A model generated the notes under the pieces. The model ran no database searches. It was given only the letters and a program-made list of their open reading frames with translations, and was not told the origin of the DNA. A program made the position numbers and the translations under genes. From Coriobacteriia bacterium (GTDB lineage Bacteria > Actinomycetota > Coriobacteriia > Coriobacteriales > RUG033), in NCBI GenBank assembly GCA_015655215.1, contig JAATFL010000013.1:371-64370 (forward strand): a DNA stretch of 64,000 nt, given 5' to 3'. Every line of letters starts with the position of its first letter. The first letter of the stretch is position 1. Below are positions 14,163-36,877 of the stretch, piece by piece.

Positions 14163-14416
14163 TGTTCCTTGTCCCGGTCTGTGAGGAGTCTCCTGAAGGA
14201 TACTCCGTCCTATGATCCTGAACGCTCTCGACACCCCTGTCCATGATCCGTGAGGTAAGCGATCCGCTGGCAAGTGTATCAAACGCCTCCTACGACAACG
14301 GGATGAGCGCTTGAGGTTCTCTGCGCCGCGAAGGCGGTGTCGTCTCGCGGGCGCTTCCCTGCCGGCGTTCCCGCCGTTGGCGAGGGGAGGGAAGTCGATC
14401 GGATGGGGGCGCCGTG

Positions 14417-15982: not shown

Positions 15983-17524
15983 TTACTCCCATGAGGTGGT
16001 TGAGGCGGCGTTCGCACCTGCGATACGGCCCCATGCAAGTCCGCCGGTGAGCGACGTGCCCGAACCCGGATAGTAGAGACCATACCACCCGCCTGAGTTC
16101 ATACCACCGGAGAAGAGGTGGGGGATGGGGTCGCCTGAGAGCGAGATCACCTGCGCATCGACGTTGATCTTCAACCCGCCCAGTGAACCGAGGTTCGCCG
16201 ATACGTTCTTGTAGGCGTAGTACGGTGGCTTATCGAGTTGGATGAGTTGCGTGTTGCGGTGCCAGTCGAGATCCTCCCCCGTTTGGGCGATATTCGCGTT
16301 CCAGTCATTCATCGTCTGGGCGAGCGTTTGCGCCGGGACCCCCATCGCCTCCGCGAGGCTCTCATAGGTGTCCGCGGTCAAGAGGGTACCCTTGGCAACA
16401 GCCGAGTCGATGTCGCTGTACCAGGGTCCGAGCTTCTGTTCGACCATGCTCTGGTCAAGTACCATCCACGTGTCGCCGTCGAGCTGGGTGGCCTGCTGGA
16501 AGATGGCACGGTACGTGTAGGCGTAGGTGGCGTCCTCGCACACGAAACGCTTGCCGTTCGCGTTGACGAAGATGCAGGGTATCTGGGCGACGGCGTTGGT
16601 CGTCGCGTTGCCGGTGGCCAGGTCGTAATCGATGCATCCTCCCACGGTCGCAAGCGCGGCTCCGACCTCAAGGCCCATCCTGATGCCATCGCCGGTGGCG
16701 GTCGTGGCGATGTAGCTCTTCTGCGTGGTGAGGTCCCAGTACTGCTGCTGGTTCAGGGCTTTGGCAAGGTCCTCGTTCCTGTCGATGCCGCCCAGCCCGA
16801 GGACGACACCCCTCTTGGCCTTGATGTTGACGTCACTCCCGTCCTTCTTGGCGACGACACCGATGATGCCGTTGTCCCCATCGGTGATGAGTGATTCGAC
16901 GGTCACGTCGTACTCGAACGTCACGCCAAGATTCTGGGCCGCTGCGGTCTCGAGGTCGGTGACGATCTTCCCACCACCTGCTGCACCACCACCCTTGTAC
17001 ACGTGGATGCGGTCGGCGTGCAGGTTCTCCGCGTCGCAGTAGGGGACATGGCAGTTGCCGTACACCGACGTCCATTCCGTACCGATGCTCTCAAGCCACT
17101 TCAGGTCATCGGGGGCGGCGTCGCAGAGCGTGGTGATGAGGTCCTCTTCACCGATGCCCTCCGCTTGCTTGACGTAGCATCTGGCGTGGATGGCCGGCGT
17201 GTCGTTCTGAAAGGAGGTGAACTCCTTCTGCCATTCGGTTCCCGCTGCCTGGAACACGCCACCGGAGAGGGCCGTGGTTCCACCGGACTGGGATTGCTCC
17301 TCGAGGCAGAGCACCTGGGCACCGGCCTCGGCGGCGGCACATGACGCGGCAAGGCCCGTTCCCCCCGCACCGCAGACGATGACGTCGGTCTCCTCCGCCC
17401 ACTTGATGTTCGCGGCAGAGCTGCTCGATGAGGAACTCGAACATCCGGTCAAGACCCCGCCGGCAACTGCCGCGGCCCCGATCGCCGCACTTGTGATGAA
17501 CCCCCTGCGTGAAAGATTGGCCAT
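15983..17524 (-). CDS. Tat-exported FAD-dependent oxidoreductase, fumarate-reductase/flavocytochrome-c flavoprotein family (predicted lipoprotein)
   Basis: SD AAAGGGAGAA. Signal SRRGFITSA followed by lipobox LTGC and a poly-Ser linker. DVIVCGAGGTG. Confidence 0.9.
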   Translation of the reverse strand: MANLSRRGFITSAAIGAAAVAGGVLTGCSSSSSSSSAANIKWAEETDVIVCGAGGTGLAASCAAAEAGAQVLCLEEQSQSGGTTALSGGVFQAAGTEWQKEFTSFQNDTPAIHARCYVKQAEGIGEEDLITTLCDAAPDDLKWLESIGTEWTSVYGNCHVPYCDAENLHADRIHVYKGGGAAGGGKIVTDLETAAAQNLGVTFEYDVTVESLITDGDNGIIGVVAKKDGSDVNIKAKRGVVLGLGGIDRNEDLAKALNQQQYWDLTTQKSYIATTATGDGIRMGLEVGAALATVGGCIDYDLATGNATTNAVAQIPCIFVNANGKRFVCEDATYAYTYRAIFQQATQLDGDTWMVLDQSMVEQKLGPWYSDIDSAVAKGTLLTADTYESLAEAMGVPAQTLAQTMNDWNANIAQTGEDLDWHRNTQLIQLDKPPYYAYKNVSANLGSLGGLKINVDAQVISLSGDPIPHLFSGGMNSGGWYGLYYPGSGTSLTGGLAWGRIAGANAASTTSWE

Positions 17525-19658: not shown

Positions 19659-21134
19659 CTACTCTTCCTGCTCGATTATATTGAGCAGTTCCTGCTTGCT
19701 TGAGATACCCAGTTTCTTATAGATACTGCGCATGTGCGACTTCACCGTGCCCTGCGAGATGCAAAGCTCGTCTTGGATGTAAGGACCTGAACGGCCACGG
19801 GCAAGGAGGAAGAGCACCTCGGACTCACGAGTCGAAAGCGCATAACGTTCAGCGACGATGGCGCAATGTCCGTGCAACGTCTCCTCACCGCCAAAGCCCG
19901 TGCGCACCTCGATCAGATGGAGCGATTCCTCCCGTGGCTCGATGAAGGCACGTGCGACCGTGATGAGCACGATGGCTCCCACGATGACGTACGAGAAGGG
20001 CAGATGGATGGGGGAGAAGAAGTAGCCATAACCACCACAGCCCAGGCAAAACCCGAGGAAGTTGCCAAGATGCTGGATGAAACGGCATCTCGGTACCACG
20101 ACCATCGAGCCCGTGCTGTTGCGGAATGAGATATCGGAGTAGAGCATCCATGAGAACTGGTCGAGGAAGGTATAGCCTGCCATGGCGATTGCTATCCCAA
20201 TCCATACGGTGCCCTCATCCAACACCATGAGCAGGGCGAGGCCGCATACCATGAGAGGTACCGCAAGGCTATCGATGAACTCGAGCATCGTGACCAGCGA
20301 ACACCGTAGGGCGAGGACGAAGTTAGCGACCAGCGCAACCGTCACCCCCACCATCATCAGCATGGATGCGCCCTTGAACTCGACGGTATCCGGTGTCGCT
20401 ATGAAGCCGAGCATCACTCCGCTTACCAAGGCGAGGCAGAAGATGTAGGCCGGCATCCTGAAGTTCATCGACACAAGCTGTTGGGCCTCGGCCTTGCGAT
20501 AGGACCCGGCCCTTCTCGCACCACCCTTGCTCAAGACGAGGGTGGTGGCGCAACCGAGGGGCAGAAGGCATACGGCGGGTGTGGCGATGATGGGTGGTAG
20601 GCAGGCAAGTAGGTAGAAGACGATGAATGCGAAGACGCCGGATATGACGAGCTGTATCATGCCGCGGCTCGGCCGACTGTTCGCCCAGAACTGTGCACCG
20701 GCAATCATCTGCGTCGCGATTCCGAAGCCGATGGCGACCGTCGAGAGCAGGAGGATGGGGATGGCACTGTAACCTTCGATGGGGACGATGGCAAGCGCGG
20801 TCCCAGCCGAGCTCAGCACTCCCCCGATGACCACGAGGCGTTTGGATATCCTCGTCGTTGGACGGAAGTGCCCCACGATCGCCCAGATAAGATAGCCGCA
20901 GGTGATACCGAATATGAACGAGCATCGAATCGTCTGTATCCTCGCACCGTCCCCTATGAAACCGTAGAGGTTGGAGCCCATCACCGCGCAGAGAAACCAC
21001 GCGTAATAGAAGCCGTGCCCAAAAAGCTCCCAGCTCCTCTCGCGCAGCGAGTGGAGCTTTTCAAGATCCTTATCCTCCCGTATAACGGGACCCCTTTGAT
21101 GCGGCACCGCGTCCAAAACCCTATCTACCATCAT
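19659..21134 (-). CDS. Polytopic-membrane LuxR-family transcriptional regulator
   Basis: The ORF-track start at 21431 would overlap the divergent gene. ATG 21134/21131 follows GAGGA..GGGGGG. N-terminal WELFGHGFYYAWFLCAVMGSNLY motif shared with the regulator at 49255. C-terminal HTH LSTRESEVLFLLARGRSGPYIQDELCISQGTVKSHMRSIYKKLGI. Confidence 0.85.
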   Translation of the reverse strand: MMVDRVLDAVPHQRGPVIREDKDLEKLHSLRERSWELFGHGFYYAWFLCAVMGSNLYGFIGDGARIQTIRCSFIFGITCGYLIWAIVGHFRPTTRISKRLVVIGGVLSSAGTALAIVPIEGYSAIPILLLSTVAIGFGIATQMIAGAQFWANSRPSRGMIQLVISGVFAFIVFYLLACLPPIIATPAVCLLPLGCATTLVLSKGGARRAGSYRKAEAQQLVSMNFRMPAYIFCLALVSGVMLGFIATPDTVEFKGASMLMMVGVTVALVANFVLALRCSLVTMLEFIDSLAVPLMVCGLALLMVLDEGTVWIGIAIAMAGYTFLDQFSWMLYSDISFRNSTGSMVVVPRCRFIQHLGNFLGFCLGCGGYGYFFSPIHLPFSYVIVGAIVLITVARAFIEPREESLHLIEVRTGFGGEETLHGHCAIVAERYALSTRESEVLFLLARGRSGPYIQDELCISQGTVKSHMRSIYKKLGISSKQELLNIIEQEE

Positions 21135-21140
21135 CCCCCC

Positions 21141-21250
21141 AAATCCTCGTCTCATTATGATAGTCGACCCGACAAATCCTTTCGACCCTTTTGGATGATT
21201 TCGGGATAATCCTTCAATCCCCATCTTTTGGAAGGTGCGAATCCTTTCCG
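21141..21250. promoter_or_regulatory. Four phased direct repeats (A)ATCCT(T) at 32-33 bp spacing in the LuxR/reductase divergent intergenic region
   Basis: ATCCT occurs at 21143, 21176, 21209 and 21241. Copies 2 and 4 read AATCCTTTC(C)GA. Copies 2 and 3 are each followed by CTTTTGGA. Confidence 0.3.
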
Positions 21251-21314
21251 AAGCATATAGCTTCGTCGTCGAGGGCGGACACGGGGCCTGCCCGGAAAAC
21301 CATAGGGAGGAAGC

Positions 21315-23015
21315 ATGGATTTGAATCGACGTGGGTTTCTGAAAGGTGCTGCGGGCGTGGGCGCATTGGCCGCGATAGGCGGTCTCGCAGGGTGCGCGAC
21401 GAGTGCGGCGAACGACTCGGCCGAAGGCCAAAACGCAGCGGAGAGCTCCTCGGCCAGTTGGCGCGTCGCACCCGAGCCCATAACCGATATCTCCAGCACC
21501 ATGGAAGCTGACTTCATCATCGTCGGTGCGGGCAATACGGGCATGTGCGCAGCTACGACGGCTATCGAGAATGGAGCAAGCGTGATCGTGCTCGAACAGT
21601 TCGACACGCCTCAGAACTCACGCAGTTGGCTCGGCGCGATCAACTCTTCGTTGCAACGGCAGATGGGTTACACGGCAGACCCCGTCGAGGTGACCAATGA
21701 CATCTGCCGGTACTCCAACTACCTTGGCAACCAGCGTCTCATCAGCCTCTGGGCAAATCGCTCCGGCGAGTTCGTCGACTGGTGGCGCAGCATCATCGAG
21801 CCTCTCGGTGCGGATACGATCCTCGAGACCAAGTGCGATGACTATAAGTACATGAACATACCGACTGCCCACCATCTGGTCGCCGCCCCCAAGAAGCTCG
21901 AGGGCAACCAACTCTACGTCGCCAACGTGCTCCTGCTCCCGTATCTTCAAGGCAAGGGGGTCGATTTCCACTTTACGACGACTGCTGACTACTTGGTCCA
22001 GGAGGATAGCGGCAAGGTCACGGGTGTCATCGGTACCGACGCTGATGGCAAGCACATCCAGTTCAACGCGAAGAAGCTCGTCGTCGTCGCATGCGGTGGG
22101 TTCGCGGGCAACCAGGACATGATGGATGATCTGGTTGAGACGGGTCACCGTTACTGCTCCTTTGGCATGGACATCGTCCGCCCCCTCGGTCGTGGTATGC
22201 AGATGCTGTACTGGGCCGGTGCACAGCTTGCGCCCGTTCAGGAGACGATGATCTTTGACCGTGGCACCGTACCCGATGGCGCCACGGTTGGAGGCATGCC
22301 CTTCCAGGGTGGGATCTGGTATGGCGGATCGCTGCCGTTCTTGCGTGTCAACGTGGAGGGCGAACGGTTCTTCAACGAGGACCAGCTCTATGACTGGAAC
22401 TGGAATGCGGCGATATCGCAGCCCACGCACACGTGGTGGCAGGTCTTCGATGGCAAATTCTACCAGGATGCGACCAAGTTCCAGAACACCCGTTGTGCCC
22501 GTATCGTGTCCGACCCCGATGGTGGGGCTCCCAACACCGCATGGATCGATGGTAAGTCGCCGCTCGACGAGGACTTCATCATGGCACAGCTCAACGACGT
22601 CATAACGACCACGGCAGGCAAGAAGGCCGACACGCTTGATGCCCTGGCCCAGCAGATGGGTGTGGACAAGACGACCTTCCTCGCCACCGTGAAACGCTAT
22701 AACGAACTCGCTGCCTCTGGTGTGGATAACGATTTTGGCAAGGAGGGCTATAGGCTTTCGACGCTTGAACAAGGCCCCTATTATGCGGTTCACTGCGCTG
22801 GTTGGATCCTGTGCACAATCGGTGGTGTCAATACCGATCTCGACTTACACCCCGTCGACGCCGACGGCAATCCCATCGAGGGTCTGATCGCAGCCGGAAA
22901 CGAGGTGGGTAACTTCTACACCACCACGTATCCCGAGACGTACGGGGGCCTCAACATGGGTCGCAACCTGACGCTCGTCTGGTATGCCATCCGTCGTGCG
23001 TTGGGTATCGAGTAG
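21315..23015 (+). CDS. Tat-exported FAD-dependent oxidoreductase, fumarate-reductase/flavocytochrome-c flavoprotein family (predicted lipoprotein)
   Basis: SD AGGGAGGAAGC. NRRGFLKGAAG followed by lipobox LAGC. DFIIVGAGNTG. Confidence 0.9.
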   Translation: MDLNRRGFLKGAAGVGALAAIGGLAGCATSAANDSAEGQNAAESSSASWRVAPEPITDISSTMEADFIIVGAGNTGMCAATTAIENGASVIVLEQFDTPQNSRSWLGAINSSLQRQMGYTADPVEVTNDICRYSNYLGNQRLISLWANRSGEFVDWWRSIIEPLGADTILETKCDDYKYMNIPTAHHLVAAPKKLEGNQLYVANVLLLPYLQGKGVDFHFTTTADYLVQEDSGKVTGVIGTDADGKHIQFNAKKLVVVACGGFAGNQDMMDDLVETGHRYCSFGMDIVRPLGRGMQMLYWAGAQLAPVQETMIFDRGTVPDGATVGGMPFQGGIWYGGSLPFLRVNVEGERFFNEDQLYDWNWNAAISQPTHTWWQVFDGKFYQDATKFQNTRCARIVSDPDGGAPNTAWIDGKSPLDEDFIMAQLNDVITTTAGKKADTLDALAQQMGVDKTTFLATVKRYNELAASGVDNDFGKEGYRLSTLEQGPYYAVHCAGWILCTIGGVNTDLDLHPVDADGNPIEGLIAAGNEVGNFYTTTYPETYGGLNMGRNLTLVWYAIRRALGIE

Positions 23016-23028
23016 ATGGTCTCCATGT

Positions 23029-23058
23029 CAGGTGCGCCCCCCGGAGGGGGCGCACCTG
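23029..23058 (+). terminator. GC-rich perfect 13-bp hairpin (CAGGTGCGCCCCC-CGGA-GGGGGCGCACCTG) 14 nt after the reductase stop
   Basis: Read directly. Tetraloop present, no U-tract. Could act as a terminator or an attenuator before the downstream operon. Confidence 0.5.
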
Positions 23059-23320: not shown

Positions 23321-24496
23321 ATGGGAAAGGAGATAATCGTGGGAGAGGAACTAGCTGATTCTGCAGCATACAGACGACTGGAGGCATCCATCCAGGAACC
23401 TGAGAGCGAGGAGATGCGCGCCTGGAAGGACGCCGGAGGGAAGGTCATCGGATGCTTGTACAACAACATCCCCGAGGAATTGATCGTCGCTGCAGGTTTG
23501 ACGCCCTATCGGATCAGGGCAGTGGGAAGCACCGGGGCCGAGCTTGCCGATTCCCGATTCTCCCAAATCAACTGCAGCCTTGTCCGTCATCTCTACGATT
23601 CGGCGAAACGTGGTCGCTTCGACTTTATCGATGGTCTTGTGGCGGCGAACGACTGCGATCATATGCGGAAGCTCTACGAGAACTGGAAAGCCACGATAGA
23701 CGAGCCCTACTTCTATTTTCTCGGTTTTCCCAAGAAGCATGGGGAGCCGCAGGCTGCTCGCCTCGCAACGATGCTCGGCGATTTCAAGAAGAGCCTCGAA
23801 GGGTCGTTCGGAGTGGAGGTCACCGATGAGAAGCTGCGCGCGGCGATTGACCTCCTCAACGAGATCCGCCAGCTTCAACGGGAATTGCGTGATATGTGCA
23901 CGTCCGATGACCCTCCGATCTCGGGCGCGCAGATGCTCACCGTGGCGATTGCCGGAGACTCGATGCCCAAGAAGGTCTATCGGGATCTGCTGCGTCAACT
24001 TGTCATCGACGTGAGGTGCATGGGCGATGCGACGCGACCTCGCGCACGGCTGGTCATCTATGGCGGGGAGATCGACTCACCGGAGTTGCTGGTTGCCATC
24101 GAGAGCCAAGGTGCATTGGTCGTGGCAGACTCTCTGGGCGGATTTGGTTCACGGAACTGCGCCTGTGATGTTTCGACCACGGGGGATCTGCTCTTCGATC
24201 TGGCCCATTGGCTCGTCGTCGATCGGCCTCATGAACCACGAACCTTCAACACGGCTCCTGAGCGCTATGCGTACGTCGATGGGATTTGCAAAGAGTATGG
24301 TGCTGACGGCGTGGTGCAGGTTCACGTCTCGATGTGCGATCTCTGGTCGTACGACCGCCTTAACTTCGATAGACATGCGGGCATGAGGAACATCCCGTGC
24401 TTGGACTTGGACATCGAATACGTCCTTTCTGGAGAGGGTCAGCTCAAGACGAGAGTCCAGGCGTTCGTCGAAACCATCACTGACAAGGAGCGATAG
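23321..24496 (+). CDS. 2-hydroxyacyl-CoA dehydratase / benzoyl-CoA reductase (HgdB/BcrB-like, HGD-D family) subunit
   Basis: Family-typical blocks KVIGCLYNNIPEELIVAAGLTPYRI, SQINCSLVRH and LVAANDCDHMRKLYENW. The start is ATG 23321 or GTG 23339; the latter lies 7 nt after AAGGAG. Confidence 0.85.
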   Translation: MGKEIIVGEELADSAAYRRLEASIQEPESEEMRAWKDAGGKVIGCLYNNIPEELIVAAGLTPYRIRAVGSTGAELADSRFSQINCSLVRHLYDSAKRGRFDFIDGLVAANDCDHMRKLYENWKATIDEPYFYFLGFPKKHGEPQAARLATMLGDFKKSLEGSFGVEVTDEKLRAAIDLLNEIRQLQRELRDMCTSDDPPISGAQMLTVAIAGDSMPKKVYRDLLRQLVIDVRCMGDATRPRARLVIYGGEIDSPELLVAIESQGALVVADSLGGFGSRNCACDVSTTGDLLFDLAHWLVVDRPHEPRTFNTAPERYAYVDGICKEYGADGVVQVHVSMCDLWSYDRLNFDRHAGMRNIPCLDLDIEYVLSGEGQLKTRVQAFVETITDKER

Positions 24497-24497
24497 C

Positions 24498-25787
24498 ATG
24501 AAAAGGGGACTTGAGCGTTGGTATAGGTACAAGGAGGTATTCTCCGGCGCACTGTCTGCTGAGGAAGCGAAGGGCGAGCAGGCGAACCCGGTGCAACTTG
24601 CGTTCTTGAAGATAGTCGTCGACCACGTGGATCGCATCATCGGGTGCGTCGAGAGCGGCAAACCTCTCGCGTCGATCTGGTACGGCAATGCGCCCGAGAT
24701 ATTCGCCGCTCTGGGAATTGACTGGTACTGTCCCGTCGACATGGTGTTGGCAAGCCAGGCCTTCACGTCAGACCTCGCCGAGGTGCATACGTCGTCCACG
24801 CCCGATGATTCCTGCGGACTTATCCAGCTTGCCGCCCAGGCGGTCGAGAAAGGGTATGTTCCAACTCCCAACTCGATCATAGCGATGTTGGAACCTTGCG
24901 ATGCGCAGACGTCGGTACATGATGCATGGCTCAGCGTCGACGCATGGAGCGATATACCAACCTTCGCGTTGGACTACCCCTATGGGTCGACTCAGGGGGA
25001 CTTCAAGTACTTTGCCGATGAGCTTGGTCGGATGATCGCGTTCCTCGAGGACCTCTACGGCGTGAAGATGGATTGGGACAGGCTGAGGGAGGTTTGCGAG
25101 ACCAGTAACCAGATGTATGCAGCCTGGTCGGACCTTAACGATCTGCTGTGCGCGGTTCCATGCCCCTTGCCACCCATGATATCGGCAGAGTTGGGTTGGA
25201 ACGTCACCCAGCACTTGCTTCCACCTGGGAGTCCTGACGCGATCAACCTCTTCAACCTGCTTTCCGCCGGGGCCCGCCAGGCAGTCGAGGCCGGCATAGG
25301 GGCCGTCCCTCACGAGCAGGTCAGGATACTGTGGGCGGATTTGGATGGGACGTGGGCTGCCAGTATGCTGGCTCCTTGGCTTGCGGAGAAGTACGGTGCG
25401 GTCATCGTGCAGACATTCCAAGGTCATACGCCCTACCTTCCCATCGACACCTCCTCCCCGGAGAGCATGCTGCTCGGCGTGGGGAGGCGGAGTATCAGCG
25501 AGGTCCCGATGATTCGCCAGGCACGTGGTAGCGTGGGGGTGTTCATCGAGGATATCAAATCGATGGTGAACGACTATACGATCGACATGGTCTTCTTCCC
25601 GGGGCACAAAGGGCATAAGGACCAGTCTGCGAACATCGGATTTCTACGGGAAACGTGCCACGATATCGAGGTGCCGCTCTTCGCCTTCACCTGTGACCTG
25701 TTCGATCCCACGTGGGTTCCCATCGACCAGTTGAAGCGCTCCATAGACGAATTCTTCGAGACGCAGGAGATCAGGCCGCTCGGATAA
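24498..25787 (+). CDS. Second 2-hydroxyacyl-CoA dehydratase/benzoyl-CoA reductase-family subunit
   Basis: ATG lies 7 nt after AAGGAG and 1 nt after the upstream stop. Paralogous architecture (SIWYGNAPEIFAALGIDWYCPV, LEPCDAQTS). The C-terminal FFPGHKGHKDQS...FTCDLFD is typical of this family. Confidence 0.85.
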   Translation: MKRGLERWYRYKEVFSGALSAEEAKGEQANPVQLAFLKIVVDHVDRIIGCVESGKPLASIWYGNAPEIFAALGIDWYCPVDMVLASQAFTSDLAEVHTSSTPDDSCGLIQLAAQAVEKGYVPTPNSIIAMLEPCDAQTSVHDAWLSVDAWSDIPTFALDYPYGSTQGDFKYFADELGRMIAFLEDLYGVKMDWDRLREVCETSNQMYAAWSDLNDLLCAVPCPLPPMISAELGWNVTQHLLPPGSPDAINLFNLLSAGARQAVEAGIGAVPHEQVRILWADLDGTWAASMLAPWLAEKYGAVIVQTFQGHTPYLPIDTSSPESMLLGVGRRSISEVPMIRQARGSVGVFIEDIKSMVNDYTIDMVFFPGHKGHKDQSANIGFLRETCHDIEVPLFAFTCDLFDPTWVPIDQLKRSIDEFFETQEIRPLG

Positions 25788-25841
25788 GCGTCACTCCGGA
25801 TGCGGCGCTGCGTACCTGGAATACACGTCGAGAGGGGAGTC

Positions 25842-26681
25842 ATGTATTTTGCTGGGTGTGATCTGGGTTCTACGACGGGGAAGGTGGTCATCCTCGACGA
25901 TGCCGGAGGTGAGGTCTCGATAGCGGGATGGTCGGTCGTCCCGGCAAGCTACCTTCCAGAAGACACGGCCGGTGCCGCTTTCGACGATGTCCTGCACCGG
26001 TGCTCGCTCGACTCCCTCGATGACCTCACCGCGACCTGCTGTACAGGTTACGGCCGCGCGAGCGTGAGCTATATCTCTGATAACGTATCAGAGATCACTT
26101 GTCATGCCCGGGGCGCACGCTGGGCCCATCCTGGCGCCCGGACGATAATCGACATCGGTGGGCAAGACGTGAAGGCGGTGGTGCTGAGCGGTACGGGGAA
26201 GGTGCTCGATTTCGCGATGAACGACAAGTGCGCCGCGGGGACGGGAAAGTTCTTCGAAGTCATGGCAAACACCCTTTGCTGCAGCTTGCCGGAGCTCGGG
26301 GAGCTTGCACGAAGGGCCGGCGCATGCGCGCACATGACGAGTCAGTGTAGCGTTTTCGCCGAAAGCGAGGTCATCGCCTATATGAACCAAGGCACCGCCC
26401 GTGAGGATATAGCTGCAGGCATTCACGAGTCGATCGCTCGAAGGCTTTTCTCAATGGCCGAGAGGGTGGGTTATCGTGAGGATGTCGTCTTAACGGGTGG
26501 GTGCGCCAAGAACGAGGCGCTTCGCGTTGCCCTCGAAGGTCTCCTCGGATGCTTGTTGGTACGTCTTCCGATCGATCCCCAGATAGTCGGTGCCCTCGGT
26601 GCCGCCCTCTTCGCGAGAGAGCACCACGCATCCGCCGCAAGAAGATCGGATGCCCCCACGCGATCGACAGGAAGGGCATGA
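25842..26681 (+). CDS. HgdC/BcrAD/BadFG-type ATP-dependent [4Fe-4S] activase
   Basis: ATG 25842 follows gagaggggag. ASKHA N-terminus FAGCDLGSTTGKVVILD. DIGGQD. Cluster-bridging Cys motifs NDKCAAGTGKF and SQCSVFAESEV. Confidence 0.9.
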   Translation: MYFAGCDLGSTTGKVVILDDAGGEVSIAGWSVVPASYLPEDTAGAAFDDVLHRCSLDSLDDLTATCCTGYGRASVSYISDNVSEITCHARGARWAHPGARTIIDIGGQDVKAVVLSGTGKVLDFAMNDKCAAGTGKFFEVMANTLCCSLPELGELARRAGACAHMTSQCSVFAESEVIAYMNQGTAREDIAAGIHESIARRLFSMAERVGYREDVVLTGGCAKNEALRVALEGLLGCLLVRLPIDPQIVGALGAALFAREHHASAARRSDAPTRSTGRA

Positions 26682-26682
26682 G

Positions 26683-27423
26683 ATGCAGATGACGGCCTTC
26701 GACGATCTGATCGGGAGGGTTTGCGGGTATACCGCGGAATGCGGCGAGGCACGTGCCTCGCATATCGGAGCTTCTGAGCGAATAACGTCGATCCCGAAGG
26801 TGTGTGGCGGAGTCGTCCTCAGGTCTCAGATGCACTGTGAACTTGGAGGGCCCTCGGAACATTCGTGTGGCTATTGCCTGCCCACGGCGAGCAGCAAGGG
26901 ATTCGAGGATGGGCGCGTGCGCGTGCTGGGCATGGGGTGTGGTGAGATGCCAAAAGGCGCCTGCGTGCCGTTCGCTCAGGTGCTGCTGCTTGCCGGCGAG
27001 GGCCTTGACGACTCCAACTTTCAAAAGCTCGTCGACTCCCAGCATGCGAGGTCGCTCGTACCCGGTTACATGATGAGGTCGTATCCGGGCAAGATGTGGG
27101 GGAGAGTCTCCGTCCAGGCCGTCCAGGCGGGATTTGATTTCGAGACGCTCGGCGCCGCTTTGAGGGAGCACGTTACCAAGGTGGTTCCCGAAGTCGAACT
27201 GTTCGAGGCGATCTTCGCAACAAGAGCAGCTGACGTGAAGTTTCTCGAAGGTCTTTCAAGCGAATATCTCGGAATCACCCATGACCTGAAGAAGAAGCTG
27301 TGGGGTGTGAAGGGCATCGACATCGACTGTCCCTTCGGCGGGCACTGTGGTGCCTGTTCCCGCAAGGACACCTGCGACGAGATACGGCATTTGAGTGCTT
27401 TGAGGAAAGTGGAAGGTGAGTGA
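26683..27423 (+). CDS. Cys-rich protein resembling the N-terminal/middle part of acetyl-CoA synthase (AcsB/CdhC), truncated before the Ni-binding domain
   Basis: ATG 26683 follows AGGAAGGG, 1 nt after the activase stop. Blocks CELGGP, EDGRVRVLGMG..MPKG..VPF and WGRVSVQAVQAGFDFETLGAAL match ACS blocks as I recall them. C-terminal C-x5-C-x2-C-x5-C. Being a real gene: high confidence. Family assignment: moderate, from memory only. Confidence 0.65.
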   Translation: MQMTAFDDLIGRVCGYTAECGEARASHIGASERITSIPKVCGGVVLRSQMHCELGGPSEHSCGYCLPTASSKGFEDGRVRVLGMGCGEMPKGACVPFAQVLLLAGEGLDDSNFQKLVDSQHARSLVPGYMMRSYPGKMWGRVSVQAVQAGFDFETLGAALREHVTKVVPEVELFEAIFATRAADVKFLEGLSSEYLGITHDLKKKLWGVKGIDIDCPFGGHCGACSRKDTCDEIRHLSALRKVEGE

Positions 27424-27427
27424 GTCC

Positions 27428-28333
27428 ATGGGAATCAAGATGTATGGGGAACCTGCTCTCCGGATGCATTCCAATCCGATGGCATCGTGCTTCGATTGCA
27501 AGAGAGAGGCCAGGTTCCACCATGTTGCAGCAGGGCAAGCGCATGAGCACTTACGATTCTGCGCGAAGTCCCACGAGGGGCACAGGGTGATCGCAGTCTG
27601 CGGGAAGGGCGGTGTGGGTAAGACGGCATTCTCCGCTCTCGTGTTGGGGGCGATGGTCCGCAGCGGCGTGTTCGGACGGATCCTCGTCGTCGATGCCGAC
27701 CCTGCCCTGGGCCTTGGCCTTGCTCTCGGCGTACCAGTTGGAAAGACCATCGGATTTGTGCGGGAGGAGATACTACGTACCGCCGGGTCCAAGGACCTGC
27801 AACTCGAGGCGGAACTTGCGGGGAAGCTTGACTATCTGATTGCCGAATCTCTTACGGAGGCAGACGGCTATGCGTTCATGGCGATGGGACACAGCGATTC
27901 GCTTGGCTGCTATTGCTCCGTGAACGATCTGTTGCGGGACGCTATCCAGGTGCTGATCGCAGATTTCGACACGGTGCTCATCGATGGCGAGGCGGGACTA
28001 GAGCAGATAAACAGGCAGGTCGTCGCCGGTATCGATCGTTTGATCGTCCTATCGGACGGTTCTTGCAGGGGTATGAATACCGTTAATTTGATTTATGATA
28101 TTGCCAAGAGGGAGCATCTCGTCGAAGCGGAGCGCATCGGAGTGGTGTTCAACCGCGTCCTTGCTGGTATCGACGAAGCCCAGCCCCTTCCCAAGGAGAT
28201 GAGCCTTTTGGGTATCGTCCCCTTGGATCCGGTCGTTGCACGGTGCGATGCGCAGGGGATACCGTTGGATAGGCTCTCACCGGATACGCCGGCTGCTCAC
28301 AGCGTGTGGCATATAGTCGAAGGACTGTTCTGA
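27428..28333 (+). CDS. CooC/AcsF-type (MinD-superfamily) metallocentre-assembly ATPase
   Basis: Deviant Walker A CGKGGVGKT (about 27598-27624), VVDADP, and the CooC-diagnostic C-x-C motif GCYCS (27908-27916). The start is uncertain. ATG 27428 gives a 53-aa Cys/His-rich extension. GTG 27587, after GAGGGG, gives the canonical MIAVCGKGG start. Confidence 0.8.
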   Translation: MGIKMYGEPALRMHSNPMASCFDCKREARFHHVAAGQAHEHLRFCAKSHEGHRVIAVCGKGGVGKTAFSALVLGAMVRSGVFGRILVVDADPALGLGLALGVPVGKTIGFVREEILRTAGSKDLQLEAELAGKLDYLIAESLTEADGYAFMAMGHSDSLGCYCSVNDLLRDAIQVLIADFDTVLIDGEAGLEQINRQVVAGIDRLIVLSDGSCRGMNTVNLIYDIAKREHLVEAERIGVVFNRVLAGIDEAQPLPKEMSLLGIVPLDPVVARCDAQGIPLDRLSPDTPAAHSVWHIVEGLF

Positions 28334-28365: not shown

Positions 28366-28410
28366 GACGGGGATTCCGTCGGTCATCGACAGCCGGGGGG
28401 AATCCCTGTC
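28366..28410 (+). terminator. 12-bp stem (one G-U) hairpin GACGGGGATTCC...GGAATCCCTGTC after the last gene of the operon
   Basis: Read directly. The loop is 21 nt and there is no U-tract, so this is a weak call. Confidence 0.3.
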
Positions 28411-28440: not shown

Positions 28441-28599
28441 CTATGTCTCGATCAGGTTGAGGAGTTCCTGACGAGTGTGCACCCCTAGCCTCCGGTAGAG
28501 GTTCTTGGCATGCGTCTGCTCGGTGTTCTTGGATATCACCAACTCTTCGCGGATGTAGGGGAGTGAGCTGGCATACTGGTCCTTTGCCCACTCATCAGC
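28441..28599 (-). pseudogene. LuxR/GerE-type HTH remnant (52 codons, no start codon) directly in frame behind the TAG stop of the upstream polyferredoxin-like ORF
   Basis: My own translation: ADEWAKDQYASSLPYIREELVISKNTEQTHAKNLYRRLGVHTRQELLNLIET*. The C-terminal 37 aa align with the HTH of the five LuxR paralogues in this window. No Met/Val start is present. Confidence 0.6.
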
Positions 28600-29790
28600 C
28601 TAGCGTTCGTAGATCTGCCCTTTGCCGAGCAGGTCGTAGAGCCTGTCGTACATCGGGTTTGTGCCGGCTCTGGGTTTTCGAGGGGCCTTCACCTCATAGC
28701 GCTCTCCCATCCCCTCGGCCAAGGCCGCTGCGGGGACCTCCCCGTCGACCGTGATGGCACCCCGCAGGCAGATGTCACGGCAAAGGCAGCAGCGAACGCA
28801 GCGGGAGGGATAGTGGCCTATGGCGGTGGATCCGCCCTCCTCGTATTTGACCAAGGCCCCCGTGGGACAGAAGTTCGCGCACATCATGCATGCCATGCAG
28901 AGGTCCCCGTCGATGCGCACGTGGCCCCAGAGGCGCGTGGGGATCTCACCGGCTTCGGGATAACCGAGCAGCGACAGCCAATCGAGGAGTTTCTCGCGAC
29001 GTGCAGGGACGAAGCGTGGGAGGCTGCCGTCCTCTCCCACGTGAGCGTAGCGTGGGCTTGCCTGCCGTCTCTCGGATGGATCGTCCACGACGCTCGTCAC
29101 GGCGGACACCGCCGCGCTCCTCGCGCCTTGCTTCATCTGTGAGAGGAACTCGCGGCGTGAGACGCCTTGCGCACGTTCAAGGTCCGCGTCCTCGAGCCAT
29201 GCATCGTCTGGGAGCTCTTTCGCAAAGACGAAACCGGCATCCGTATAGCCACATGCCTCCATGAGGGTGGTCGCCGTATCGCAGACGAGGCGTGCGGTGT
29301 TCAGACCGTTCCCATACGGGCACTGGTCGCAATCCCCGGACACGAGCACGACCGTCTTGGCTCCATTGGCGATGAGTCCCACCAGGAACGACTCCTCCAT
29401 GCGCCCGAGGCACGTGGCTTCCACGATCGTGCTGCGTTCATAGGGGTCACGGCAGCTCTCGAGATACGTCGAGCAGACGATGACGGGGTTGCCATCCGTC
29501 GCCTTCGTGGCGGCCAGGCCGTTCGCGAACAGGGTCTCATCAGGTGGGTTCCTCGCCTCAAGGGCACCGGTCGGGCAGGCGGTCGCACAGGTGCCGCATC
29601 CGATGCAGAGGTCGGGAATGACGTCGAGTCTGTCTCCATCGCACGAGATGGCACCCGACGCGCAGGCATCCGAGCATCTTCTACAGCTGGCGTTGCGGTT
29701 GCGCACCAGCACGCAACGCTCCTGATGGACGGCCATGCTCGGACTTTCGATCCTCTCGAGGATATCCAGTATGCTCGCGATGTTTGGCAT
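28600..29790 (-). CDS. Polyferredoxin-like Fe-S protein (4Fe-4S dicluster - MvhD/FlpD-like Cys domain - 4Fe-4S dicluster)
   Basis: SD GAGAGAGGGAAC. CIGCGTCATACPTG; central VVLVSGDCDQCPYG; C-terminal CMACMMCANFCPTG and CVRCCLCRDIC. Confidence 0.85.
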   Translation of the reverse strand: MPNIASILDILERIESPSMAVHQERCVLVRNRNASCRRCSDACASGAISCDGDRLDVIPDLCIGCGTCATACPTGALEARNPPDETLFANGLAATKATDGNPVIVCSTYLESCRDPYERSTIVEATCLGRMEESFLVGLIANGAKTVVLVSGDCDQCPYGNGLNTARLVCDTATTLMEACGYTDAGFVFAKELPDDAWLEDADLERAQGVSRREFLSQMKQGARSAAVSAVTSVVDDPSERRQASPRYAHVGEDGSLPRFVPARREKLLDWLSLLGYPEAGEIPTRLWGHVRIDGDLCMACMMCANFCPTGALVKYEEGGSTAIGHYPSRCVRCCLCRDICLRGAITVDGEVPAAALAEGMGERYEVKAPRKPRAGTNPMYDRLYDLLGKGQIYER

Positions 29791-31696: not shown

Positions 31697-32476
31697 ATGA
31701 CGGAATCGGGCATTGGGGAATTCCTGAGCGAGGAGGCACTCGAAAGAGGGGATGAGGACGTGGCCCTCGACGCGTGCGACGAACGCGTGGATGTCGCCTC
31801 CGGCGAAGGCACGGCCGAAGTAGTCAATGGGCTCACGCGCGAGGAGTGCCGTGAGAGGCTCGAGAACATCTTCAAGCGCCACGCAGCCCACCGCGAGATC
31901 TTCTATCAGATCCTGGTCTTTTGCCAAGAGATGCGGCTTCTCCCCAACATCGAGGAGGGGATCGCGACCTATCCCGAGTTCAAGCATGCGGCGCAGAGCC
32001 CGTACCATTTCATCCGCACCTTGGAGGAGGCGGGTGGTCTGACGCGCATCGAGTTGGACGAGAAGGAAGACGAGGTCACGCCCGAACGCAAGGAGGGCCT
32101 CGGTGAGGACGCGATCGACGAGTTGGTCCATGACTACGTGTTCGAGACGACCGACGCTGGCAGGGAGACCGTCAAGGCGCATGACCCCGTAAGGCGCATC
32201 CTCGAGCTTCTCGACGACCTCCCCGCCCGCAAGGACACCTACATAGAGCTCATGGACTTCTGCAAGGAGAGCCCTCGCGCCTATACGGAGGTGGGACGAT
32301 TCCTCGAGGGGCACGATGCCCTCAAGCACGTCGACGTCGCATCGGGGCAGGTCCTGCAGCCGAGCGTCTTCTTGGACAAGCTCGAATCTGCACATGCGAT
32401 CGTGTGGGATGGCGGCTGGATATTGACGGAGGAGGGAAGAGGGTACCTGGTTGCGTTGGAAAGCCCAGCCGCTTGA
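31697..32476 (+). CDS. Acidic hypothetical protein, first gene of the Mo-oxidoreductase operon
   Basis: ATG 31697 follows gaagggaagagggg. 259 aa with no signal peptide. Two internally similar segments end in winged-helix-like strings (HFIRTLEEAGGLTRIE and IVWDGGWILTEEGRGYL); that reading is inference. Confidence 0.7.
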   Translation: MTESGIGEFLSEEALERGDEDVALDACDERVDVASGEGTAEVVNGLTREECRERLENIFKRHAAHREIFYQILVFCQEMRLLPNIEEGIATYPEFKHAAQSPYHFIRTLEEAGGLTRIELDEKEDEVTPERKEGLGEDAIDELVHDYVFETTDAGRETVKAHDPVRRILELLDDLPARKDTYIELMDFCKESPRAYTEVGRFLEGHDALKHVDVASGQVLQPSVFLDKLESAHAIVWDGGWILTEEGRGYLVALESPAA

Positions 32477-32532
32477 ACGATAGGGAGAGCAAGGACGGAT
32501 CGGTTCACAGGACACAGGGAAAGGAAGGGATT

Positions 32533-35331
32533 ATGCCAGAGACGGTTCAACTGACACGTCGAAGCTTCATCAAGGCCTCCGCTCTTGCCGGAGCGGCAGC
32601 CGCCATCGGCGCATCGATGTCGGGCTCGCTCGTGGAGACCGACGCGGCGTATGCCGACTCCGCAACCGAGACCAAGAAGGTGCACACCTCCTGTCATGGA
32701 TGCATCCAGGTCTGCCCGGCGTACGCCTACATCGAGAACGGCGTCGTCACGAAGCTCGAGGGCGATCCGGATGCCCCCACGAGCAAGGGGTCGCTTTGCA
32801 TGAAGGGTCTCAACCAGTTGCACACCATGTACAGTCCGCGCCGCATCCTGCATCCACTCAAGCGTGCGGGGGAGCGTGGGACGAATGACTGGGAGGTCAT
32901 CTCCTGGGACGAGGCGATAAGCCTCGCGGCCGATCAGATCACGAGCACCATCGACAAGTACGGCTCGTACTCGTTCTTCGCCTCCGTCGGCGGCGGAGGC
33001 TCCTACTCGTTCATGGAGGCCATGACACTGCCGATGGCCCTCAATTCGCCGACCGTCTTCGAACCCGGCTGCGCCCAATGCTACCTGCCGCGCTACGCCA
33101 TGGCGAAGTTCGTCTACGGCGCAAACGACCAATCCATCGCCGACAACGCCGTCATAGAACCCTTCAACGAGTATACGAACAAGACCGAGATGCTGGTTCT
33201 ATGGGCAGCGCAGCCCTCGGTGAGCCAGACGGCCGAATCGGGCCACGGGATGGCCGACCTGCGGGCTCGCGGATGCAAGACGGTCGTCGTCGACCCCAAC
33301 TTCAGCCCCGACGCCGTCAAGGCGGACGTCTGGCTGCCGGTTCGTCCGGGTACGGATACCGGGCTCTTGCTCTCGTGGTTCCGCTACATCTTCGAGAACA
33401 AGCTCTATGACGAGAAGTTCACCAAGTACTGGACGAACCTGCCGTTCCTCATCGACCCCGACACCAAGCTCCCCGTTGAGGCCGCGGAGCTCTTCCCCAG
33501 CTACGTCTCCCCGACGCCGGAGAACACGCCTGCATATGTCTGCTACGACCTGAGGACGAACTCCGTCCAACCGTTTCCCTTCAGCGCACCTGACAGTTCC
33601 CCGGTCGACCCGGATATCTTCACGACGCAGACCATCGACGGCAAGACGTACAAGAGTGCCGGCCAGATATACAAGGAGCAGGCCGAACCCTGGACCCTCG
33701 AGCACGCCGAGGAGGTCTGTTGGGTCCCTGCCGATCGCATCGAGGCGGCCGTGAAGCTCTACACGGATGCCGATGTCGCCGGCATCGCCAACGGGGTCGC
33801 CTCCGACATGACCGAAAGTGCCTCGCAGGTGCCGCTCGGGTGCCTTGGGCTCGATATGGTCATGGGGTATGTGAACAAGCCCGGATGCACGCTCACGCAG
33901 CGTGACCTCTCGAGCGTCCCCACCGTCCGCCCGGTCGCCCACTACAACGGCTTCGATGGCATGTTCTCCGACATCTACGGCGTGGGTGCGGTCGTGGGCA
34001 TGAGTCCCGCGGAGAACGAGGCCCGCATCAAGGCCTTCCCCCCGGACCGTCAGGCGCAGTACAACAAGCTGCTCGTCGACCGTCTGGGCATGAAGGAGCA
34101 CAAGGGTCTGTACGCTTGGTGCCACTCGCACATCCCCACGGTGCGCGAGGCCATCGCGACCGGCGAGCCCTTCAAGCCCCGAGTCTGGTTCGACATGTCC
34201 GGCAACAAGCTCGCCATGCTGGGTAATGCCAAGTCGTGGTACGAGGTCTTTCCCGAGGTCGACTTCATCATCGGCCAGTACCCCATGCTGACCTCGTTCC
34301 ATATAGAGGCCGCCGACCTGGTCTTCCCCTTGCGCGAATGGCTCGAGGAGCCCATGGTCAACATGACGCAACAGAACACCACCTGGCTGCAAAACGAGTG
34401 CACGCATATAGGCGAGACCGTTTCCCACAGCATCCCCGCAGGCCAAGTACTCGATAAATGCGAGGAGATATGGGGCAAGCTCCCCGGCCTCGCACCTGGG
34501 TACCTGGGCGACCACACCGAGGCGGACGTCAAGCAGGGCGTCGCCGACAGTCTCAAGGCCGCCAGCTGGGATGAGCTCATGGCGAACACGGACAAATACG
34601 TCCCGCTGGTCGTCCCCCCGAAGGATTTCTACCAGTACTACCAGCATGAGGTCGTCGTCTCAGACGGTCTACCCGCAGGTTTCGGCACGGAGTCACGTAA
34701 GTGCGAGCCGTATTGCACGCTCTTGCTCAAGATGGCGCGCACCGGATACCCGTTCTGCTACCCCGTGGCCCAGGAGGCATGTGACGACTACTCGCCGATA
34801 TGCGAGTTCATCGAGCCAGCCGAGAGCCCCGTCGGCGATAGCGAGTATCCGCTCGTCCTCACTTCCGGTCGCGTCCCCTACTTCCACCACGGCACCATGC
34901 GCCACGCCGCCTTCGCACGGGAGCTCTACCCAGCTCCCGACGTGCGCATCAACCCCGCGACGGCGGAGGAGCTCGGCATCGAGCACATGGAGTGGGTCAA
35001 GGTCTCCTCGCGTCGTGGTGACATCTCCGGTCGGGCCTACCTCACCGAGGGGGTCAACCCCGGCGTCGTCTGGATGGAGCGCTTCTGGAACCCTGAGTGC
35101 TTCGACGAGTCGCAGACCCATAAGACCGCCGGTTGGCGTGAGTGCAACGTGAACATCCTCACCAAGAACGACGCTCCCTTCAACGAGGTCTTCGGCTCCT
35201 ATACCAACCGCGGCTTCACCGTCAAGGTCGAGAAAGGCGCGCGGCCGGACAACATCTGGATCGAGCCCAAGGAGTTCGAGCCCTTCCTACCTACGCTCCG
35301 TAGCGAGCCGACCACGAAGGATGTGTTCTAA
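32533..35331 (+). CDS. Molybdopterin (bis-MGD, DMSO-reductase-superfamily) oxidoreductase catalytic subunit, Tat-exported
   Basis: ATG 32533 follows ggaaaggaaggga. Tat signal TRRSFIKASALAG with an AYA cleavage-like site. N-terminal FS0 motif C-x2-C-x3-C-x27-C (HTSCHGCIQVCP...SLCMKG). 932 aa. Confidence 0.9.
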   Translation: MPETVQLTRRSFIKASALAGAAAAIGASMSGSLVETDAAYADSATETKKVHTSCHGCIQVCPAYAYIENGVVTKLEGDPDAPTSKGSLCMKGLNQLHTMYSPRRILHPLKRAGERGTNDWEVISWDEAISLAADQITSTIDKYGSYSFFASVGGGGSYSFMEAMTLPMALNSPTVFEPGCAQCYLPRYAMAKFVYGANDQSIADNAVIEPFNEYTNKTEMLVLWAAQPSVSQTAESGHGMADLRARGCKTVVVDPNFSPDAVKADVWLPVRPGTDTGLLLSWFRYIFENKLYDEKFTKYWTNLPFLIDPDTKLPVEAAELFPSYVSPTPENTPAYVCYDLRTNSVQPFPFSAPDSSPVDPDIFTTQTIDGKTYKSAGQIYKEQAEPWTLEHAEEVCWVPADRIEAAVKLYTDADVAGIANGVASDMTESASQVPLGCLGLDMVMGYVNKPGCTLTQRDLSSVPTVRPVAHYNGFDGMFSDIYGVGAVVGMSPAENEARIKAFPPDRQAQYNKLLVDRLGMKEHKGLYAWCHSHIPTVREAIATGEPFKPRVWFDMSGNKLAMLGNAKSWYEVFPEVDFIIGQYPMLTSFHIEAADLVFPLREWLEEPMVNMTQQNTTWLQNECTHIGETVSHSIPAGQVLDKCEEIWGKLPGLAPGYLGDHTEADVKQGVADSLKAASWDELMANTDKYVPLVVPPKDFYQYYQHEVVVSDGLPAGFGTESRKCEPYCTLLLKMARTGYPFCYPVAQEACDDYSPICEFIEPAESPVGDSEYPLVLTSGRVPYFHHGTMRHAAFARELYPAPDVRINPATAEELGIEHMEWVKVSSRRGDISGRAYLTEGVNPGVVWMERFWNPECFDESQTHKTAGWRECNVNILTKNDAPFNEVFGSYTNRGFTVKVEKGARPDNIWIEPKEFEPFLPTLRSEPTTKDVF

Positions 35332-36734: not shown

Positions 36735-36877
36735 GGTCAACCCGCTTCGCCTCTCCTGTGTGGGAGTCGTCCTCGTACTCCGGTGCACCGGTCCCGTCGG
36801 GCGAGGGGCATGGCATCCTTGGGGAGGGGCAATAGATTGCAAGATCACAAGCCGCTCAGTAGGGAAGGTTGATCACC

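Follow-up and report, generated by a model that had tools for sequence, protein, structure and literature searches.

A widespread five-gene module in a Coriobacteriia genome combines HGD-D enzyme subunits and their activase with an acetyl-CoA synthase-like protein and a CooC-type ATPase

What could an ATP-activated radical enzyme have to do with a piece of acetyl-CoA synthase (ACS) and a metallochaperone-like ATPase? This question is raised by a block of five abutting co-directional genes located at 23321-28333 on the + strand of a 64,000-nt stretch of contig JAATFL010000013.1 from a Coriobacteriia bacterium. The whole stretch is further referred to as the window, and the genes as g1 to g5: two HGD-D subunits of presumed beta (g1) and alpha (g2) type, an HgdC/BcrAD-type ATP-dependent activase or 'archerase' (g3), a short protein of the ACS/CdhC family or 'mini-ACS' (g4), and a CooC/AcsF-type P-loop ATPase (g5). 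The block is one instance of a five-gene module that has no name and is widespread. With a probability of roughly 0.55, in our estimate, the module encodes an ATP-driven enzyme of the benzoyl-CoA reductase/2-hydroxyacyl-CoA dehydratase (BCR/HAD) type in which g4 would be a metal-containing subunit loaded by g5, and the substrate would be aromatic or phenolic.

Five genes that recur together

The genes g1 (23321..24496), g2 (24498..25787), g3 (25842..26681) and g4 (26683..27423) are followed by g5 (27416..28333), which starts either at ATG 27428 or at an alternative GTG 27416 that would overlap g4. The stop/start pairs are 24496/24498, 25787/25842, 26681/26683 and 27423/27428, and purine-rich ribosome-binding sites are found upstream of 24498, 25842, 26683 and 27428, that is, for g2 to g5. 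For g1, GTG 23339 is a more probable start of translation than ATG 23321, since this GTG lies six bases 3' of a strong ribosome-binding site, GGAAAGGAG, and agrees with the N-termini of the orthologues.

Two hairpins bracket the block. The upstream one (23029..23058, + strand), located 3' of a flavoprotein gene, has a perfect 14-bp G+C stem and a folding energy of -31.4 kcal/mol (z = -4.4; 0 of 200 shuffled sequences fold as well), and it looks like a terminator. The closing hairpin (28366..28410, + strand) has a folding energy of -33.9 kcal/mol (z = -3.3 relative to shuffled sequence). Neither of them is followed by a U-tract, and for this reason both were missed by a simple terminator scan. 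Between the flavoprotein gene and g1 lie the first hairpin and a gap of 260 nt; an Rfam search of this leader 5' of g1 gave no family match and, in particular, no riboswitch, the NiCo type included. The sequence-only reading of this locus had described the five near-abutting genes and the bracketing hairpins. The open reading frame (ORF) list and the junction sequences bear out the former, and the latter both fold well below the energies of shuffled sequences.

Loci with the module were gathered by a metagenome scan with g2, which has at least 490 relatives, and 80 fetched loci were scored with hidden Markov models built from our own alignments. A locus was considered adequately flanked if it extended at least 1.5 kb upstream and at least 3 kb downstream of g2 (48 loci). 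The genes g1, g3, g4 and g5 all stand beside g2 in 42 of the 48, and g4 is present in 45. The 64 module loci form 29 clusters at 80% g2 identity; many loci are redundant, those from the human gut especially. The gene-neighbourhood check suggested together with the sequence-only reading thus finds the five-gene set recurring across phyla.

Cultured hosts found via the g2 search are Desulfitobacterium hafniense DCB-2, Acetobacterium sp. KB-1, Geobacter sp. FeAm09 and Shewanella yunxiaonensis. The module is also present in Mesosutterella sp. AGMB02718, in two Joint Genome Institute (JGI) metagenome lineages, in short contigs and in one 2.7-Mb genome contig. About 20 of the fetched loci (L027-L050) come from human gut assemblies, and in many of these the module lies beside one or two genes for flavoproteins resembling the vinyl phenol reductase VprA. 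At least two of the human-gut loci, L031 and L040, are Gram-negative, with porin genes nearby and Crp-family regulator genes.

The order and company of the genes vary between lineages. In most loci examined g4 and g5 abut or overlap; they are separated in L003 and in D. hafniense DCB-2, where a methyl-accepting chemotaxis (MCPsignal) gene (L013, 13138-13953) lies between the CdhC-like and CooC-like genes. Chemotaxis genes of the same kind flank the Geobacter and Acetobacterium modules. The activase gene comes first in L003, and the HGD-D pairs are duplicated in L086 and L089. In L007 (1-13800, a Bacteriovoracaceae metagenome-assembled genome, MAG) and the related L010, FGE-sulfatase-like genes (formylglycine-generating enzyme family) are interleaved with the module and a second HGD-D pair is present. 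L017 (485-10237) has two divergent HGD-D/HGD-D/activase sets in one genome. Only one of these sets is accompanied by CdhC-like and CooC-like genes, with an extra 235-aa protein encoded between them, and its alpha subunit keeps the canonical cysteine considered below.

The sequence-only reading had assigned the first three genes to an HgdAB/BcrBC-type enzyme and its ATP activase. This is confirmed by the Pfam family HGD-D for g1 and g2, and by BcrAD_BadFG and TIGR00241 for g3. The g1 protein (391 aa, HGD-D E = 4.5e-69) matches BzdN (1.4e-35) and HadC (2e-29) most closely in the PDB, and on this ground it is presumed to be the beta, electron-entry type of subunit. Its C85, C112 and C339 are invariant in 32 orthologues. 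Three further cysteines, in positions known from BzdN and the double-cubane cluster protein (DCCP), are present in about half of the lineages and absent from the window's clade; in BzdN an [8Fe-9S] cluster is held by six cysteines (PMC11971306).

The g2 protein (429 aa) is a divergent HGD-D protein (E = 3.6e-39). Its family profile matches BzdO, MbdO and HadB, and the same three proteins together with DCCP are the top Foldseek matches of its AlphaFold2 model (predicted local distance difference test, pLDDT, 89.5; TM-scores 0.72-0.78, with 0.78 for HadB). From these matches of profile and model, g2 is presumed to be the alpha, catalytic type of subunit. In BzdO, the ligands of the catalytic [4Fe-4S]-OH2 cluster are Cys95, Cys128 and Cys380 (PMC11971306). 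C106 and C134 of g2 align to the first two, and His373, in the motif PGHxGHKD, aligns to Cys380; the domain score at this point is weak (1.8 bits), and the alignments to BzdO and MbdO agree. Histidine occupies position 373 in 97 of 112 homologues. Cysteine occupies it in 12, all with the canonical HxGCK; no other homologues are as distant as these (at most 33% identity). Judging from these alignments, the third ligand of the g2 cluster in this clade is predicted to be His in place of Cys. We also considered His373 as a strict marker of CdhC/CooC-linked enzymes, and this use is weakened by L017, where Cys is kept.

The activase g3 is recognized by Pfam BcrAD_BadFG (E = 2.7e-58) and by TIGR00241 (238 bits, with a cutoff of 125), and its cluster-bridging cysteines, C130 (DKCAAGTG) and C169 (SQCSVFAES), are invariant. 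The NCBIfam equivalog scores are all far under their cutoffs: 151 versus 350 bits for the DCCP model NF040772, and 128 versus 700 and 124 versus 454 for the others.

The g4 protein (246 aa) scores 43 bits with Pfam CdhC, with a cutoff of 24, and covers only residues ~312-485 of bacterial ACS, or 4-201 of archaeal CdhC. The top Foldseek match of its AlphaFold2 model (pLDDT 85) is ACS 1oao (E = 2e-13, probability 1.00); the top 23 matches are all ACS, and nothing else is significant. The sole invariant cysteines in 19 relatives are C216, C222, C225 and C231, spaced CX4-6CX2CX5C. They are located just before the terminal helix, and the protein ends ~15 residues after this motif. In the profile alignment this motif is placed at the start of the ACS A-cluster cubane motif (GC..C........C in archaeal CdhC). 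No Cys-Gly-Cys and no further C-terminal domain are found in g4, the ACS matches ending at residue ~485-511. By its profile and predicted fold, then, g4 appears to descend from ACS and to consist of the ACS/CdhC middle (A2, CoA-binding) domain and a C-terminal four-Cys tail. In the Clostridium autoethanogenum CODH/ACS structure, the middle domain makes most of the contacts with acetyl-CoA (bioRxiv 10.1101/2024.08.05.606187). Trp and Arg of the ACS WxRxS motif are conserved in g4, and this Trp may correspond, by offset only, to the adenine-stacking Trp405 of ACS.

A word-indexed search with g4 returned only 19 relatives, whereas an exhaustive profile search yielded 211 clusters (50% identity) at E <= 1e-30. 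Most of the 150 best matches listed are 240-290 aa long; g4 represents a distinct family of ~250-aa proteins and not a set of fragments. A narrow pattern, Wxx[KR]GIDIDC, was found in one MAG only among GTDB genomes, which is not that of the window's organism; this pattern was too strict.

In profile searches g5 belongs to the MinD/ParA/ArsA superfamily of ATPases. Within it, a single-sequence search of the PDB gives CooC1 (3kje, 2.2e-12) ahead of MinD (5e-8). With the family profile the order is the same: CooC1 is matched over its full length at 6e-22, MinD over a part at 6e-15, and NifH/BchL at ~3e-6. The CYC motif of g5 aligns to that of CooC1. GKGGVGKT, DADP and GC(Y/F)C show no change across 12 orthologues, which also keep DGEAGLEQ(I/V/M/L)NRQ. 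At its N-terminus the window g5 is extended by 50 residues, seven of them His; this extension is conserved in L011, L019 and L021, and the L007 protein begins with MCEECGMHEHE. In Geobacter sp. FeAm09 (L014, 8605-8802) and S. yunxiaonensis (L016, 8658-8831), homologous ORFs of 57-65 aa lie just 5' of g1. Their first residues are MC and their last ones His runs (EHHHH, HEH), and they are candidate metal-binding accessory proteins. His/Cys-rich add-ons are typical of Ni/Zn/Co chaperones such as HypB, CooJ and UreE. These features suggest that g5 is a CooC/AcsF-type metallochaperone ATPase, often with His/Cys-rich add-ons, which may transfer nickel. The two remaining assignments of the sequence-only reading stand as well: profile and fold searches place the supposed truncated ACS-like protein in the ACS/CdhC family, with its middle domain only, and the scores for CooC1 over MinD together with the invariant CXC favour a CooC/AcsF-type maturase over a generic MinD/ParA protein.

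Neighbouring genes

The sole recurrent neighbour of the module is a FAD_binding_2 flavoprotein gene; no other family is as frequent in a set of 120 neighbour ORFs drawn from 17 lineages. It is found within 4 kb in 22 of the 31 modules with 4-kb flanks, a count inflated by redundancy. In the window, this position is occupied by the gene at 21315..23015 (+ strand), predicted to encode a lipoprotein-type flavoprotein reductase exported by the twin-arginine translocation (TAT) system (Pfam FAD_binding_2 3e-38, TAT signal). Its best NCBIfam family is VprA, with 178 bits versus a cutoff of 600. The closest relatives are module-adjacent flavoproteins of D. hafniense, L019, L021 and L022 (37-48% identity). 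The proteins of the window, D. hafniense, L019 and L021 score 305-432 bits with each other; the window one scores at most 162 bits with its own five paralogues in the window. The link to an upstream flavin reductase that was proposed from the window alone has thereby gained orthologous counterparts at D. hafniense and other loci.

A second group of module-adjacent flavoproteins comes from Geobacter, Shewanella and gut Gram-negatives (44-47% identity). Both groups score best on VprA (178-357 bits), and they are regarded as relatives of VprA and not as equivalogs because the scores are below the cutoff of 600. A single orthologous group for all module-adjacent flavoproteins was rejected, as there are two main groups and the flavoprotein of Mesosutterella belongs to yet another.

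Some loci have other neighbours. A XylR/DmpR-type sigma-54 activator and a Phenol_MetA_deg channel are encoded near one module, Phenol_MetA_deg near another, a Toluene_X gene near one locus, and genes of O-demethylase components adjoin the D. hafniense locus; the chemoreceptor genes at three loci (D. hafniense, Geobacter and Acetobacterium) belong here too. Taken together, these neighbours hint at aromatic or hydrophobic substrates.

Pfam scans of ~40 ORFs of the window revealed no carbon monoxide dehydrogenase (CODH), corrinoid Fe-S protein, methyltransferase, CoA ligase or CoA transferase, as the sequence-only reading had also noted. Likewise, no CODH/ACS, corrinoid protein, methyltransferase or CoA ligase/transferase is recurrent among the 120 neighbour ORFs from 17 lineages.

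Upstream of the flavoprotein gene and divergent from it lies a gene for a LuxR/GerE-type regulator with multiple transmembrane segments (19659..21431, - strand; Pfam GerE at residues 531-582), which probably controls the locus. On the other side of the module, a C-terminal LuxR/GerE helix-turn-helix remnant (28443-28596, - strand, ending in SLPYIREELVISKNTEQTHAKNLYRRLGVHTRQELLNLIET) continues in frame right after the stop codon of an Fe-S gene (28600-29790, - strand), and is apparently what is left of a regulator gene after replacement of its 5' part. The Fe-S gene, convergent with the module, encodes a polyferredoxin-like protein of 396 aa, in which an FlpD/MvhD-like domain is flanked by two 4Fe-4S dicluster domains. 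Since no counterpart was found beside the module in other loci, this protein is probably unrelated to it.

Six FAD_binding_2 flavoprotein genes are present in the 64 kb (40-1731, 15983-17524, 21315-23015, 40090-41859, 43754-45418 and 47348-49030). A TAT signal was detected in three of the five scanned, and several of the genes adjoin GerE/LuxR-type regulator genes, some of which encode multiple transmembrane segments, judged from the translations. A TAT-dependent molybdenum bis(pyranopterin guanine dinucleotide) oxidoreductase (32404-35331) and a NarJ-like chaperone (36869-37618) are also encoded. By its gene content, the window thus appears to hold a large respiratory-reductase arsenal, which resembles what is expected in Coriobacteriia. 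The SbcC/SbcD genes (10258-14420, - strand) have one relative at 86% identity and the rest at ~60%, the few named ones being Clostridia MAGs. This would be explained by poor sampling of the organism or by horizontal acquisition of the genes.

Proposed function and its alternatives

We propose a heterodimer of g1 and g2 that belongs to the benzoyl-CoA reductase/2-hydroxyacyl-CoA dehydratase/double-cubane superfamily. By analogy with the solved relatives, we infer that g3 would hydrolyse ATP and supply the g1 cluster with an electron of very low potential, which would then pass to the active-site cluster of g2 and bring about a radical reduction or dehydration of the substrate. The ATPase g5 would load a metal, most likely nickel, onto g4 or, via g4, onto the enzyme, and g4 would serve as an extra Fe-S/CoA-handling subunit. 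The substrate would be aromatic or phenolic (of the aryl-alkene type), related to that of the flavoprotein and handled in an inducible respiratory or catabolic pathway. Such a substrate is probable because the module is tied to a flavoprotein related to vinylphenol reductase.

Several observations weigh against this proposal. With only four conserved Cys and no Cys-Gly-Cys, g4 cannot build a Ni-Ni A-cluster, and its site could equally be a plain [4Fe-4S] or a Zn site. The His-for-Cys replacement in g2 is not strictly tied to g4 and g5, as the L017 HGD-D gene linked to CdhC/CooC keeps Cys. There is no adjacent g5 in L010, and in L007 g5 lies ~2.4 kb downstream; in L009, g4 and g5 are accompanied by a radical SAM gene, and no HGD-D gene is visible there. 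About a third of the modules with 4-kb flanks have no nearby flavoprotein. Moreover, a TAT signal or a cytochrome c3 partner marks the flavoproteins as exported and the module genes have no signal peptides, which would place the two in different compartments. The lack of a recurrent CoA ligase or transferase is awkward for a CoA-thioester substrate. Finally, nickel, a complex of g1 to g5 and their co-transcription are each predictions only.

A bolder form of the proposal, to which we give a substantial chance though one well below even, sees here a new class of nickel-dependent enzymes. In it, g4 would have a CoA site and, as what remains of the A-cluster, a Ni-bridged [4Fe-4S], would be matured by the His-tailed g5, and would work inside an ATP-driven BCR/HAD-type radical enzyme together with a VprA-like respiratory flavoprotein. 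The reaction would be a difficult reduction or a C-O/C-C bond change on aromatics or phenolics. If this were true, the hosts of such an enzyme would include gut Sutterellaceae, the window's organism, Desulfitobacterium, Geobacter and Shewanella, and a new nickel enzyme would have been found via its chaperone, a result of wide bioinorganic interest; to our knowledge, few kinds of nickel enzyme have been described.

Among the explanations that differ from ours, the best surviving one, though unlikely, regards g4 and g5 as assembly factors only. A scaffold (g4) and an ATPase (g5) would build or insert an unusual, His-ligated or double-cubane, HGD-D cluster and be absent from the mature enzyme, and the metal might be iron. 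The altered cluster ligand in the g2 clade, the six-Cys double-cubane set in about half of the g1 lineages and the tight coupling of g4 to g5, the most tightly coupled pair of the module, are all in line with this, and Mrp/NBP35, P-loop ATPases of the g5 superfamily, are generally known to deliver Fe-S clusters. However, the CXC motif and the His-rich tails make g5 similar to CooC and HypB rather than to Mrp, and a CoA-binding-domain fold has no obvious role as a scaffold. The clusters of BzdNO and DCCP, besides, form in Escherichia coli without such factors (for heterologous BzdNO, see PMC11971306).

Less probable still is an electron-supply branch free of nickel, in which g4 would be a ferredoxin-like [4Fe-4S] donor and g5, a NifH-like redox ATPase with a cluster bridged by the CXC motifs of the dimer, would feed either the enzyme or its activase. 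A [4Fe-4S] cluster could be held at a dimer interface by two Cys from each monomer, as is generally known for NifH; weak Fer4_NifH matches to g5 were observed; and the activase needs a low-potential donor while no ferredoxin gene is found inside the module. Against this, the best full-length match of g5 is CooC1 and not NifH/BchL, the two being separated by the scores given above (6e-22 versus ~3e-6), the His-rich tails indicate metal trafficking, and a second ATP-driven electron pump would be energetically extravagant.

That the block merely encodes a known pathway (a 2-hydroxyacyl-CoA dehydratase of amino-acid fermentation, a class I benzoyl-CoA reductase or a double-cubane reductase), with g4 and g5 as passengers or relics of a CODH/ACS operon, is disfavoured and very improbable: Pfam and NCBIfam do put g1 to g3 in those families, and '2-hydroxyacyl-CoA dehydratase' and 'benzoyl-CoA reductase subunit' are the names that homologues have in source annotations, but the equivalog scores fall far under the cutoffs (151 versus 350, 128 versus 700, 124 versus 454), g4 and g5 accompany g1 to g3 in 42 of 48 loci, with 29 lineages overall, no CODH/ACS or CoA transferase/ligase genes accompany the module, and g4 belongs to a distinct family of ~250-aa proteins (211 clusters) and not to a set of fragments.

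The reading of the module as an ATP-driven BCR/HAD-type enzyme with a metal subunit would have several consequences. Some of the most demanding reductions in biology are the work of the BCR/HAD superfamily, and a new branch of it, with a His-ligated active-site cluster and an ACS-derived partner, suggests undescribed chemistry. As the module is common in human-gut metagenome contigs and is found with a VprA-related flavoprotein, it may bear on the conversion of dietary phenolics (ethylphenol-type products). Cultured hosts, some of them likely genetically tractable, make the module testable: S. yunxiaonensis, Geobacter sp. FeAm09, D. hafniense DCB-2 and Acetobacterium sp. KB-1.

Comparison with known systems

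The sequence-only reading knew of no described system that joins the two toolkits, and as far as the open literature and NCBIfam go, we found none either. No published description of the g1-g5 combination was found in openly searchable full text; most subscription journals lie outside it, so a prior description is possible. The module is not mentioned in a preprint on gut respiratory reductases, and no NCBIfam model captures g1, g2, g4 or g5 above its cutoff. Acetone-induced BCR/HGD-like proteins have been described in Desulfosarcina cetonica (PMC7888143).

Among the systems closest to g1 to g3 are the class I benzoyl-CoA reductases Bzd and Mbd (BzdNOPQ, MbdONPQ; PDB 8S02, 9G87, 9GAI), which share with the module two HGD-D subunits and an ATP-dependent activase. 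The protein g1 is nearest to BzdN (1.4e-35), the profile and model of g2 are nearest to BzdO/MbdO, and the first two active-site Cys are kept. However, the module has a single activase gene where these reductases have two (P and Q), g2 has His in the place of BzdO Cys380, and the window g1 lacks half of the six double-cubane Cys. In addition, the module scores far under the NCBIfam equivalog cutoffs, and it is not accompanied by benzoate-CoA ligase or downstream pathway genes. Neither g4 nor g5 has a counterpart among the structurally solved Bzd/Mbd components, the comparison being limited to these and not extended to whole operons.

The (R)-2-hydroxyacyl-CoA dehydratases (HadBC/HadI, HgdAB/HgdC, FldBC/FldI, LcdAB) have the same fold (TM-score 0.78 for HadB; 2e-29 for HadC), a single homodimer-type activase and, in HadC, three Cys, as in g1. 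In contrast to them, the module has His for the third Cys of the alpha cluster and the extra genes g4 and g5, has no CoA transferase and lies outside the context of amino-acid fermentation. The double-cubane cluster protein (NF040772) differs in its six-Cys [8Fe-9S] site, since the window g1 has three Cys and the module score is 151 bits versus the cutoff of 350.

With ACS (AcsB/CdhC) and its partner AcsF, the module shares the middle-domain fold of g4, a Cys motif aligned with the start of the A-cluster cubane motif, and the pairing of g4 with a CooC/AcsF-type ATPase, as ACS is paired with AcsF. Unlike ACS, g4 has no N-terminal domain, almost nothing of the C-terminal A-cluster domain is left in it, the Cys-Gly-Cys Ni site being among the missing parts, and no CODH, corrinoid protein or methyltransferase is found near the module. 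No Wood-Ljungdahl pathway is known in some of the hosts, Shewanella and Sutterellaceae among them. The relation of g5 to CooC1 of Carboxydothermus hydrogenoformans (PDB 3KJE) is similar: the deviant Walker A and the CXC motif are aligned residue for residue and the alignment is full-length, whereas the identity is only ~25%, some g5 proteins have His-rich N-terminal tails reminiscent of HypB or CooJ, and g5 is not located beside CODH or a full-length ACS, its only ACS-related neighbour being the 246-aa g4.

A precedent for inferring a nickel reductase from a flavin/Fe-S oxidoreductase linked to Ni chaperones is provided by the putative isoprene reductase operon of Acetobacterium wieringae, which encodes IsrA with HypA/HypB (PMC10134865). 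The protein families are different throughout, that operon having HypAB and not CooC, and no HGD-D protein, activase or ACS-like protein. Of its closest counterparts, the Bzd/Mbd reductases and 2-hydroxyacyl-CoA dehydratases for g1 to g3 and the ACS-AcsF pair for g4 and g5, the module lacks defining traits of each: the third Cys of the alpha cluster, linked CoA activation and equivalog scores, and the A-cluster domain and CODH/ACS context. It resembles known systems in parts and belongs to no named system.

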